Assembly: GCA_964384105.1 (NCBI GenBank)
Contig: CAYLJV010000004.1
Coordinates: forward strand, 64,001 to 128,000
Length of the DNA stretch: 64,000 nucleotides
Source: Candidatus Hadarchaeota archaeon
Lineage (GTDB): Archaea > Hadarchaeota > Hadarchaeia > Hadarchaeales > JAGGTB01
Direction: 5' to 3'
Part shown: positions 20,322 through 48,976 of the stretch, one piece after another
How the letters are laid out: each line of letters begins with the position of its first letter
How positions within the stretch are numbered: the stretch's first letter is position 1
Position numbers and translations under genes: made by a program
Notes under the pieces: model-generated
Database searches by the model: none
What the model was told of the DNA's origin: nothing
Seen by the model: the letters and a program-made list of their open reading frames with translations, nothing else

Positions 20322-20324
20322 CAC

Positions 20325-20641
20325 TGGTGGCGAGCTAGGCCGGGGAGCTAGCGGTTCCCTATACGAAAATCCGCTATATGTCGGGCCGAAGCTCTGGGGC
20401 GGCGTTCGGAACCACACGTCGGCTCGACTCGGAGCGTAGACGCCTCGTCCTGTTGGGTCGCTGGTGGCGGACTCTCAACCGGAGGGTTGAGACGAACCGC
20501 CTTCGCCTGCTGAATCCGGTCAGGGACGGAAGTCCGCAGCTGTAGGCAGGACAGTTGGCGCTTGCAGGGTCGCGGGGCCGAGCTACCGACCGAGTGTCAG
20601 GCGTGTGGGGAAGGCGTCCACCCAGAGCCCGTTCGCCACCA
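20325..20641 (+). ncRNA. ffs: Archaeal signal recognition particle (7S) RNA
   Basis: Terminal helix tggtggcga/tcgccacca, Alu-like 5' domain, helix 6 GGAG loop, helix 8 CAGG-GAC-GGAA-GTC; ~316 nt. Confidence 0.93.
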
Positions 20642-20731: not shown

Positions 20732-20821
20732 GCCGGGGTGGCCCAGTCTGGTAACGGCGCTGGCTTGCTAAGCCAGTTGCGCGAGAGCGCTTCCTGGGTT
20801 CAAATCCCAGCCCCGGCGCCA
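20732..20821 (+). tRNA. tRNA-Ser(GCT), CCA encoded
   Basis: gccgggg/ccccggc acceptor, anticodon arm ctggc-tt-GCT-aa-gccag, long variable arm, GTTCAAATC. Confidence 0.96.
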
Positions 20822-20894
20822 TTTCTTTTGTGCGAAGTGAATAAGGAAATTGTAGCGTTTTGATAATTCTAGTATTAAGATTCTTGATATTGAG

Positions 20895-21160
20895 AAGGAA
20901 GGCCGGGGACGTTACCTCTTTCGCGGGCAGGTTGTTGCCTATACTCTTTTATGTCGGTCGCCAACCGACTACAGTGCCTGCCGGCGCGCCCGGGACCCTC
21001 TGAACCACAAAGTGGTTCTCCAAGTCACCGCTTGGCTGTTTGAACAAGGAGTGAGAAATCTGCCAGCGGGACTTTTAATCCGCCGGTGTTGAAAATATAG
21101 TTCCTCAAGAGAAAAGTCAACGACCGACGGGAGCATGAAAGGATAGTCCTTTAATCAATT
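20895..21160 (-). ncRNA. Unassigned GC-rich multi-hairpin structured RNA candidate
   Basis: At least six helices, G-U pairs only on minus strand, TTTATATA box at 21193-21186. Confidence 0.55.
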
Positions 21161-21184
21161 TATTCTGGTTTTACCTCCTTAACA

Positions 21185-21220
21185 GTATATAAACTATATA
21201 CTTCTATGTTCTATAACATA
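21185..21220. promoter_or_regulatory. Two adjacent inverted repeats overlapping a TATA box (putative operator)
   Basis: gtatata-aac-tatatac (21185-21201) and tatgtt-ctat-aacata (21205-21220). Confidence 0.45.
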
Positions 21221-21330
21221 TTTATATTCCCGGATTTTTTTAAAAAAAACGGAATCATCGATTGCGAATAGGTGAGATGAATCGGGAACATAAACGAAGA
21301 GACTCATTTTGGAGGGCTCTTAATTCTGGA

Positions 21331-48545: not shown

Positions 48546-48894
48546 TTCGAGGAATAGTGCAAAGCCAGAAACTCAAGTTATGGCTATTGATTGTAAGAAG
48601 ATGAGAAAAATATACAATTCTACCAATTCAAAACGAAACAAATCACTCTTATTATTCCTTTATTCCTGTATCAGACAGGGCAATCATCAAGTCAAATATC
48701 CGAGCTGTATTACGGTGATGTGAGTCCAGAGTTAAAAAAGAAAAAATACCCCTTAAAGATTTCATACATCGAGCGTAAAGGTTCTGGACTAAGTTCTTGC
48801 ACTTTCTTAGGTGCTGACGCGATTGAGGCTTTAAAATATTATCACGACAAGCAACCCGAAAGACATATATAACAACTTTTCTTTCTTGAAATCT

Positions 48895-48953
48895 GGCGAT
48901 GAGGTCCGCCTTGACCATTTGGTCTGAACTGTCCGTTAGGCTGATGACTTCTG
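48895..48953 (+). promoter_or_regulatory. Fluoride (crcB-motif) riboswitch
   Basis: GGCGATGAGGTCCGCC...AACTGTCC..GGCTGATGACTTCTG consensus, GAGGTC/GACTTC pseudoknot; TATATAA at 48866-48872. Confidence 0.9.
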
Positions 48954-48976
48954 TGAATTGAAAGGAAGTTTCAGCC

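Follow-up and report, generated by a model that had tools for sequence, protein, structure and literature searches.

Introduction

The described systems closest to the element studied here fall into three groups. Firmicutes possess families of sibling small RNAs directed against Shine-Dalgarno (SD) sequences (csRNA1-5, the LhrC family, RsaE/RoxS); these RNAs are bacterial, about 90-150 nucleotides (nt) long, and consist of one to three simple hairpins. Bacteria also harbour RNA-structured repeats, such as ERIC/IRU, the pneumococcal BOX, RUP and SPRITE elements, and the Neisseria Correia element, which occur as many intergenic copies of 100-350 bp. The third group consists of convergent sense/antisense modules, such as the type I toxin-antitoxin repeats Ibs/Sib and Ldr/Rdl, and the copy-control RNAs of plasmids. 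To our knowledge, few large structured RNAs of unknown function have been described in archaea, and almost none in small-genome, uncultivated lineages. Here we analyse an intergenic element at positions 20,895-21,160 of a 64,000-nt stretch of DNA (the window) from a Candidatus Hadarchaeota archaeon (assembly GCA_964384105.1, contig CAYLJV010000004.1, positions 64,001-128,000). A first-pass annotation made from the sequence alone had described it as a single non-coding RNA gene belonging to a cluster of stable RNAs; we find instead that it is one of seven dispersed units of ~350 bp that have a three-hairpin fold in common.

Results

A family of seven units

A blastn search followed by a profile search with nhmmer revealed seven full-length copies of the element in the 1.6-Mb genome, with E-values ranging from 8e-61 to 4e-16:

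Copy A, C4:84896-85141 (window 20896-21141)
Copy B, C4:51001-51207
Copy C, C3:120342-120563
Copy D, C3:117776-117986
Copy E, C1:397610-397833
Copy F, C1:135623-135836
Copy G, C1:153780-154028 (the most divergent copy, E-value 4e-16)

The pairwise identity among the seven copies is 49-77%. An all-versus-all BLAST comparison including 1-kb flanks showed that the unit is discrete and measures ~350 bp. Copies B and D are homologous over 347-355 bp, extending ~95 nt beyond the core on one side and 45 nt on the other, and nothing can be aligned beyond these limits; the homology between copies A and B extends to about position 20864 of the window. The units constitute a new, lineage-restricted family.

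A conserved three-hairpin fold

The seven copies were aligned in the minus orientation of the window, and a consensus structure of 42 pairs in six helices was obtained with RNAalifold. The fold consists of a 5' hairpin, a middle hairpin, and a long 3' domain made up of helices P1, P2 and P3. The features of copy A are as follows (window coordinates, in the order of a minus-strand RNA):

21186-21193, minus strand: TATA-like word TTTATATA, a candidate promoter element whose distance to the purine box varies among copies
21173-21180, minus strand: SD-like purine box AAGGAGGU, found in all seven copies 30-60 nt 5' of the core
21131-21172, minus strand: AU-rich leader with a copy-specific hairpin (21138-43/21147-52)
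21080-21130, minus strand: 5' domain, helix 21080-87/21123-30 (85.7% of cells paired) closing a ~35-nt loop with UUCUCUUGAGGA
21024-21072, minus strand: middle domain, helix 21024-36/21062-72 (81% of cells paired) around the anti-SD-like loop
21045-21059 (plus-strand coordinates), minus strand: anti-SD-like loop AUUUCUCACUCCUUG
21002-21018, minus strand: extra hairpin gaaccac-aaa-gtggttc in a ~25-nt insertion private to copy A
20894-20998, minus strand: 3' domain, with P1 20899-20908/20989-20998, P2 20926-31/20977-82 and the P3 hairpin 20953-58/20964-69
20911-20926, minus strand: near-invariant internal loop CCGCGAAAG(A)GGUAAC, with columns invariant in all seven copies
20864-20895, minus strand: pyrimidine-rich 3' trailer, UUCCUUCUCAAU in copy A and CUCACYWUCYC in other copies
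20855-20869, plus strand: degenerate motif resembling a TFB-recognition element and TATA box (BRE/TATA), gcgttttgataattc, placed by alignment; the version in copy E is degenerate too

Covariation in homologues was among the checks named in the first-pass annotation, and the seven copies do show compensatory changes. Of the 294 cells of the consensus helices, 90.5% are paired, compared with 39-51% once the 3' partners have been slid. Both partners have changed in ten pairs; 500 shuffles gave 3.5±1.5 such pairs and never as many as ten, and the slid controls gave 2-6. In plus-strand letters, P2 reads GGCAGG/CCUGCC in three copies, GACAGG/CCUGUC in copy E and GGUAGG/CCUACC in copy G, and P3 reads UCGG/CCGA in most copies and UCAG/CUGA in copy G. 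An unpaired stretch of 13 bases in the 3' domain, GCGAAAG(A)GGUAAC, is identical in all seven copies. When a related sequence from a congener, G002 (see below), was added to the alignment, the 3' domain was 92.4% paired, with nine double changes against 3.0±1.3 in controls; the counterpart of the near-invariant loop reads CACGAGAGGCAAC in G002. The three-hairpin fold is conserved and has been kept by selection on the minus strand of the window.

All six inverted repeats listed in the first-pass annotation, and its minus-strand word TTTATATA, are present in the sequence, and the family alignment shows which of the repeats are shared helices. Two of them, ggcagg/cctgcc (20926-31/20977-82) and gtcggt/accgac (20953-58/20964-69), are P2 and P3 and carry compensatory changes. 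Another two are private to copy A: gaaccac/gtggttc (21002-18) lies in the ~25-nt insertion, which is absent from five of the six other copies (copy G has an unrelated insertion at this point), and aaagga/tccttt (21138-43/21147-52) lies in the poorly conserved leader. The remaining two, ccaag/cttgg (21020-24/21031-35) and ccagcgg/ccgccgg (21063-69/21080-86), are displaced in the consensus, where 21062-72 pairs with 21024-36 and 21080-87 with 21123-30. The predicted fold of copy A on its own shows a modest gain over shuffled sequences (z = -1.97 for the plus strand and -2.80 for the minus strand) and is weak evidence.

Covariance models were built for the two halves of the element, R1 for the 3' domain (96 positions, 28 pairs) and R2 for the 5' and middle domains; their E-values are rough, owing to a shortened calibration. 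R1 scores the 3' domain of copy A at 77 bits, and the R2 match in the window spans 21024-21149 (108.6 bits).

The fold belongs to the minus strand

The non-Watson-Crick cells of the shared helices comprise 30 G.U and 2 A.C when read on the minus strand. The same cells on the plus strand are 30 C.A or A.C mismatches and 2 G.U, with three mismatches falling in key helices of copy G. Thus, the earlier remark that mismatches in copy A become G-U pairs on the minus strand holds for the whole family. Since the consensus structure had been predicted on the minus strand, the 30:2 count could be biased; an independent prediction for the plus strand contains 15 G.U and 19 A.C. The alifold energy is -38.4 kcal/mol for the plus strand and -46.5 kcal/mol for the minus strand. 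Folded one by one, copies B, D, F and G have a minimum free energy that is 14-22 kcal/mol better on the minus strand, and copies A, C and E fold about equally well on both strands. Among the unpaired columns, C/T-only and A/G-only polymorphisms number 20 and 12, respectively, and a general mutation bias therefore does not explain the strand asymmetry. The invariant loop is purine-rich on the minus strand (pyrimidine-rich on the plus strand), and the domain in G002 lies in sense orientation between a pstA-like and a pstB-like gene, in agreement with a minus-strand reading.

No conserved reading frame and no known RNA family

No open reading frame (ORF) is conserved on either strand of the seven copies, the leaders of which were also read. 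The 55-codon minus-strand ORF that is open in copy A begins with ATG in two of the seven copies only (A and B), is interrupted by stop codons in four of the six others (B, D, F, G), and is in a common frame with copy A in 17-73% of columns; the indels do not come in threes. The pairing is conserved and this ORF is not, and the earlier judgement that there is no convincing ORF stands. A small protein, encoded either by this ORF or as a leader peptide behind the SD-like box, would be in keeping with the presence of that box in all seven leaders and with the open frame of copy A. Reading of the seven leaders showed no start codon with a conserved spacing downstream of the box, and together with the stops and indels this makes a protein product extremely unlikely.

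Rfam 15 was searched at the gathering score and at E<=10 with 521 bases around copy A (20780-21300), the six other copies, and the G002 match. Nothing covers the core of any copy, no family is matched at more than one copy, and no riboswitch family matches any copy at E<=10; the first-pass annotation, which had recognised no RNA family and asked for such a scan, was right on this point. The weak snoRNA and miRNA matches have E-values of 0.96 to 6.5. We regard as noise plasmodium_snoR21 at window 21101-21246 (24.5 bits; gathering score 90) and mir-306 over part of the 3' domain of copy F (19.4 of 52 bits). The only Rfam matches in the window at the gathering score are the signal recognition particle (SRP) RNA, two tRNAs and a fluoride riboswitch (crcB motif) at 48886-48960 on the plus strand, which reaches 42.6 bits (gathering score 34) in this archaeal genome. 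The archaeal RNase P RNA is located elsewhere (C3:148469-148758, 219.8 bits).

Several classes of element were considered and rejected. For a TnpB/IscB guide (omega) RNA or HEARO, a copy should lie close to the nuclease gene: no copy adjoins or overlaps tnpB or iscB, the one PF07282 (TnpB) match over the cut-off (C3:6807-7001) is far from every copy, and there is no HEARO match in Rfam; the IscB search (RRXRR) is uninformative, its control having matched nowhere. The RUGAUGA box of box C/D small RNAs is absent from all seven units. Past the 3' strands of the closing helices, the sequences read by eye are AUU, UAU, AAU, UUU, UUAAU or UCAAA, and not the ACA of box H/ACA small RNAs; no K-turn consensus was seen in the alignment by eye. 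An IS200/IS605-type PATE or REP element is disfavoured by the lack of PF01797 matches at E<=0.1 in this 90.2%-complete genome (the control was positive in 7 of 14 genomes), and a retron or group II intron RNA by the lack of matches to the reverse transcriptase family PF00078. The sole trait in common with type I toxin-antitoxin modules is the presence of inward promoter-like motifs at both ends; no ORF is conserved on either strand. An 18-nt perfect match between the 5'-domain loop (21102-21119) and a redoxin-like gene (C6:55636-55653) was evaluated as a trans target; with E=0.045, we attribute it to chance. A full-text literature search returned no description of such an RNA in its listings and the opening parts of abstracts. 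These results support the classification of the element as structured, non-coding and RNA-like, matching no known family.

An SD-like leader, an anti-SD-like loop and a pyrimidine-rich trailer

Read on the minus strand, the leader of each of the seven units carries the SD-like purine box (GGGGGUGA, GGGAGGGAG and similar in the other copies). The calculated duplex between this box and the 3' tail of 16S rRNA (GAUCACCUCCU) has an energy of -10.5 to -14.1 kcal/mol in all seven copies; 10% of random 100-nt windows reach -11 kcal/mol. The loop and stem of the middle hairpin read UUUCUCACCUCCUUG and match a 9-mer of the 16S tail at 9/9 positions in copies D and E and at 8/9 in B, C and G; the anti-SD-like seed lies partly within a short stem. 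When whole units are folded by minimum free energy, the predicted partner of the purine box is the trailer in copies B, D and F, and in part also in A and E, and the middle loop in copy C. A helix between leader and trailer may thus close the molecule, as these predicted folds would have it.

We tentatively propose that the units are independently expressed small RNAs that act in trans, and we assign this proposal a probability of roughly 0.45. Copy A would correspond to window 20864-21180, and each unit would specify a structured RNA of ~290-320 nt, comprising, from 5' to 3', the SD-like box, the AU-rich leader, the 5' domain, the middle domain, the 3' domain with GCGAAAGGGUAAC, and the pyrimidine-rich trailer. 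Two forms are envisaged: a closed one, in which the SD-like box would be paired with the pyrimidine-rich loop and trailer of the same molecule, and an open one, in which loop and trailer would instead pair with the SD regions of mRNAs and hold back translation. The invariant GCGAAAGGGUAAC loop would bind a partner, either a protein or a ligand. In G002, where the 3' domain and trailer occur on their own immediately before the ribosome-binding site of pstB, such sequestration of the SD sequence would take place in cis.

Promoter-like motifs and expression

On the plus strand, the motif CGAAAA-nn-ATTTWAWT is found 28-31 nt before the first helix (GGGGCCGGG) in five of the seven copies (B, C, D, F, G). 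Motifs of this BRE/TATA type are common to the tRNA-Val, tRNA-Tyr, tRNA-Leu, SRP RNA and putative EF-1alpha promoters of this genome. A strict regular expression for the motif matches the genome at only 13 sites, three of which are at copies of the element; another is 31 nt upstream of the start codon (ATG) of a gene beginning MAEKPHMNLAVIGHV, which we take to be EF-1alpha. On a minus-strand RNA, the equivalent stretch of copy A (20855-20869) would be the U-tract end of the unit.

On the minus strand, the first-pass annotation had a transcript starting from TTTATATA. This assignment does not hold up well: it would place the SD-like box (21173-21180) between the TATA box and the start, and the spacing is irregular elsewhere. 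Copies B and D have in common a AGAAAAATTTTTAAC-like word further upstream, at a workable distance.

The four sequencing runs examined for expression consist of assembled contigs, in which neither strand nor transcript ends can be read and uncovered parts are uninformative. One metatranscriptome contig (221 nt, depth 2.3) corresponds in part to 20918-20982 (8 differences) and beyond that resembles another member of the family; it is a weak hint of expression.

A number of observations weigh against the proposal of trans-acting minus-strand RNAs. The anti-SD-like loop is exact in two of the seven copies only, and in A and F it is degraded, their best matches (6/9 and 7/9) lying elsewhere in the core. 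The preference for cognate over non-cognate pairing between leader and trailer is not significant (p=0.06). The clearest promoter match of the unit is the BRE/TATA motif on the plus strand, which points inward, and the TATA-like words on the minus side, although present in every copy, are spaced irregularly with respect to the purine box (0 to 36 nt). All three tRNA-adjacent copies are co-oriented with the tRNA on the plus strand, and the unpaired columns are A-rich on that strand. The contig of depth 2.3 is the sole one from an RNA library, and DNA carry-over is possible. Finally, the family is nearly confined to one genome, and congeners are without the unit at two syntenic sites.

The strand-related points agree with another explanation, namely that the functional RNA is the plus strand, co-oriented with the SRP RNA and tRNA-Ser, or that the two strands form a convergent sense/antisense pair. 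A plus-strand RNA would have its 5' end a few bases upstream of GGGGCCGGG and its 3' end at T-runs about 40 nt past the core; runs of T4-T7 indeed follow the core in six of the seven copies, the promoter-like motif keeps an almost constant distance, and in A, C and E the plus strand folds as stably as the minus strand. However, the motif is degenerate in A and E, and the mismatch counts, the energies of the other four copies and the composition of the invariant loop described above all speak for the minus strand. We regard a functional plus-strand RNA, alone or in a convergent pair, as unlikely.

Given a promoter-like motif on the plus strand and a fold on the minus strand, the two strands may be transcribed towards each other. 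A bolder idea, and in our estimation quite an improbable one, is a convergent RNA module of a kind undescribed in archaea, with a structured RNA and its perfect antisense made at each of the seven loci. From a strong promoter of the tRNA/EF-1alpha type, plus-strand transcription would run into ~300 nt in which selection for the fold acts on the minus strand. The module would have multiplied as DNA beside tRNA genes and into an operon of a congener. It could be a new RNA-only mobile or addiction-like element, or else a regulator in which the mimic of the SD sequence is held against that of the 16S 3' end, to be released on binding of a factor to the invariant GCGAAAGGGUAAC loop.

Genomic setting

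In the window, the element (20895-21160) forms a GC-rich island in an AT-rich spacer, as first described: the GC content is 0.60-0.63 at 20900-21050 and 0.21-0.42 in the flanks. It lies 75 nt downstream of tRNA-Ser(GCT) (20732-20821, plus strand), which is itself preceded by the archaeal SRP RNA (20328-20638, plus strand). At window 20322-20328, the SRP RNA starts 7 nt past the stop codon of an upstream 319-aa ORF, which places its BRE/TATA-like word (ggaaaaaagtcttatttcc) inside the coding sequence of that ORF. Elsewhere in the genome, ARAGORN reports tRNA-like genes at C1:351151 and C1:581189 with odd anticodons ('atag' and 'cc'), which are perhaps intron-containing or atypical.

All seven copies are intergenic. 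The neighbouring genes include those for a nitroreductase, a winged-helix protein, TenA, flavodoxin, triosephosphate isomerase (TIM), a DUF5667 protein and tRNAs. No Pfam family recurs among the ten nearest neighbours of the six copies other than D, and the seven loci were also read by eye. There is a gene upstream on the same strand in four of the seven copies, so that co-transcription is possible, and none is co-oriented upstream of B, E and G. Four of the seven copies face a convergent gene or tRNA. For three of the seven, the nearest tRNA gene is no more than 300 nt away (P=0.015 compared with random intergenic sites).

Copies C and D are situated in a region beside tRNA-Leu(GAG) (C3:111.9-123.5 kb) that contains, by eye, a 177-aa TBP-like gene, two TFB-like genes of 311 and 317 aa, and a 372-aa ORF that is a possible integrase, as well as a winged-helix gene (PF14947); a third TFB-like gene is located at C6 (by eye). 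Beyond the tRNA-Thr beside copy G, small genes resembling toxin-antitoxin pairs (RHH, RelE-like, HicA/HicB-like) were noted by eye at C1:151.3-153.2 kb.

Distribution among relatives

A blastn search of the element against 40 relatives found no match outside its own genome, and partial matches inside it. The relatives are fragmented metagenome-assembled genomes, in which repeats may be under-assembled. Across 101 relatives, nine family genomes and 66 phylum genomes, R1 finds the seven copies at 77-106 bits and a single match elsewhere, G002:C102:2459-2553, at 40.6 bits. Outside the element's own genome, R2 produced only two marginal matches of ~20 bits in the nine family genomes (E 0.018 and 0.04), which we treated as noise. 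An exact-motif scan gave no match in JGI metagenomes or in viral contigs, and four bacterial matches in species-representative genomes; with R1, two of the four sites reach 15 and 16 bits and the other two are missing from the output at E<=1, and we consider all four to be due to chance.

The G002 match is a solo 3' domain with its trailer, in sense orientation within the 230-nt spacer between the end of the pstA-like gene and the start of the pstB-like gene (both named from a reading of their translations). The domain is directly followed by CUCACCUCCU and, ~65 nt later, by AAAGGAGGUG of the pstB-like gene, a layout that would suit a translational switch. Should the whole family be cis-acting leaders or riboswitches that control a downstream gene, this would be their clearest representative. 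It is also the only leader-like arrangement we have seen: the neighbours of the seven copies are unrelated, none recurs downstream in either orientation, and more than half of the copies face a convergent gene or tRNA. The absence of a recurrent neighbouring gene, in the Pfam scan of six copies and the reading of all seven loci, argues that the element is not a cis-leader and, with no riboswitch family matched, we consider this explanation very unlikely.

Two sites can be compared with congeners. The gap between tRNA-Thr and TIM, which holds copy G, measures 521 nt here and about 120 nt in G002 and G003, and the DNA after tRNA-Ser is unrelated in G002 and G003. The sequence next to tRNA-Ser varies within this genus. 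In G002, the minus strand at about 700-1100 of contig C22, after tRNA-Ser, reads like an IS607-type serine recombinase (VAIYARVSTRKQ...), by reading only. The end of G001:C46 and the start of G006:C21 break inside or at tRNA-Ser, as expected if repeated DNA follows there too.

The narrow distribution and the empty syntenic sites fit a spreading repeat as well as they fit a gene family. The main rival to the proposal of trans-acting RNAs is an RNA-structured interspersed repeat, i.e., a non-autonomous ~350-bp DNA unit similar to miniature inverted-repeat transposable elements (MITEs), ERIC or BOX, with no dedicated trans function, whose fold would matter only for its own spread or for the stability of host RNAs that read across it. 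The sharp ends of the unit, the number of copies (seven here, 0 or 1 in each of the eight other family genomes, and 0 in the rest of the 101 relatives), the proximity of three copies to tRNA genes, the setting of copies C and D, the solo domain inside a G002 operon, and the copies that could be co-transcribed with an upstream gene would all be explained. Yet the copies are old and have nevertheless kept their pairing through compensatory changes and G.U pairs, and the 13-nt unpaired motif has remained invariant in all of them. Terminal inverted repeats did not exceed those of shuffled sequences in copies B and D, the two tested (p=0.07 and 0.21), and no target-site duplication was seen by eye; copies as old as these (49-77% identity) could have lost both of these MITE marks. 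No related transposase was found: this 90%-complete genome has no Y1 transposase and no reverse transcriptase, and its single TnpB is distant. On balance, we think a repeat of this kind somewhat unlikely.

Discussion

The seven-copy family is a real finding and new as a family, with a narrow distribution and a function that we infer. The unpaired purine motif, which does not vary among the copies, points to a specific partner, and the well-supported fold is accompanied by mimics of either side of the SD interaction within the unit. If the RNAs act on translation, they would represent in archaea what the sibling anti-SD small RNAs are in bacteria, on a much larger scaffold; if the unit is a spreading element, it would show selection on RNA structure in archaeal repeat DNA. 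The presence of the fold on one strand and of the best promoter on the other is a concrete puzzle. The general reach of the finding is limited by the narrow distribution, i.e., one genome and a fragment in a congener.

The closest known systems are functional analogies rather than homologues. The omega RNAs of TnpB/IscB (including HEARO) are similarly multi-copy, structured, ~200-300 nt long and located in variable regions, but they differ from the present copies, which are not beside tnpB or iscB and do not match HEARO. Modules of the Ibs/Sib and Ldr/Rdl type have in common with our units a multi-copy organisation in ~300-500-bp units, inward promoters (here promoter-like motifs), and a structured RNA on one strand; unlike those modules, the units described here have no conserved small ORF on either strand.

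The ERIC, BOX and Correia repeats resemble our family as discrete intergenic units that fold as RNA, sometimes have promoter-like ends, and vary between close relatives. The present units are distinguished by the lack of significant terminal inverted repeats or target duplications, by their identity of only 49-77%, by strand-asymmetric pairing, and by an archaeal host. The sibling anti-SD small RNAs also comprise several intergenic paralogues (seven in our case) with unpaired C/U-rich stretches complementary to SD sequences and no ORF. Here, however, the host is archaeal, the RNA would be about 300 nt long, and it would combine an SD-like 5' box of its own with a large 3' domain that is conserved and contains the invariant purine loop; its anti-SD loop is exact in only two of the seven copies. 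Any relationship to the sibling small RNAs would be that of a common functional class, not of a homology family.

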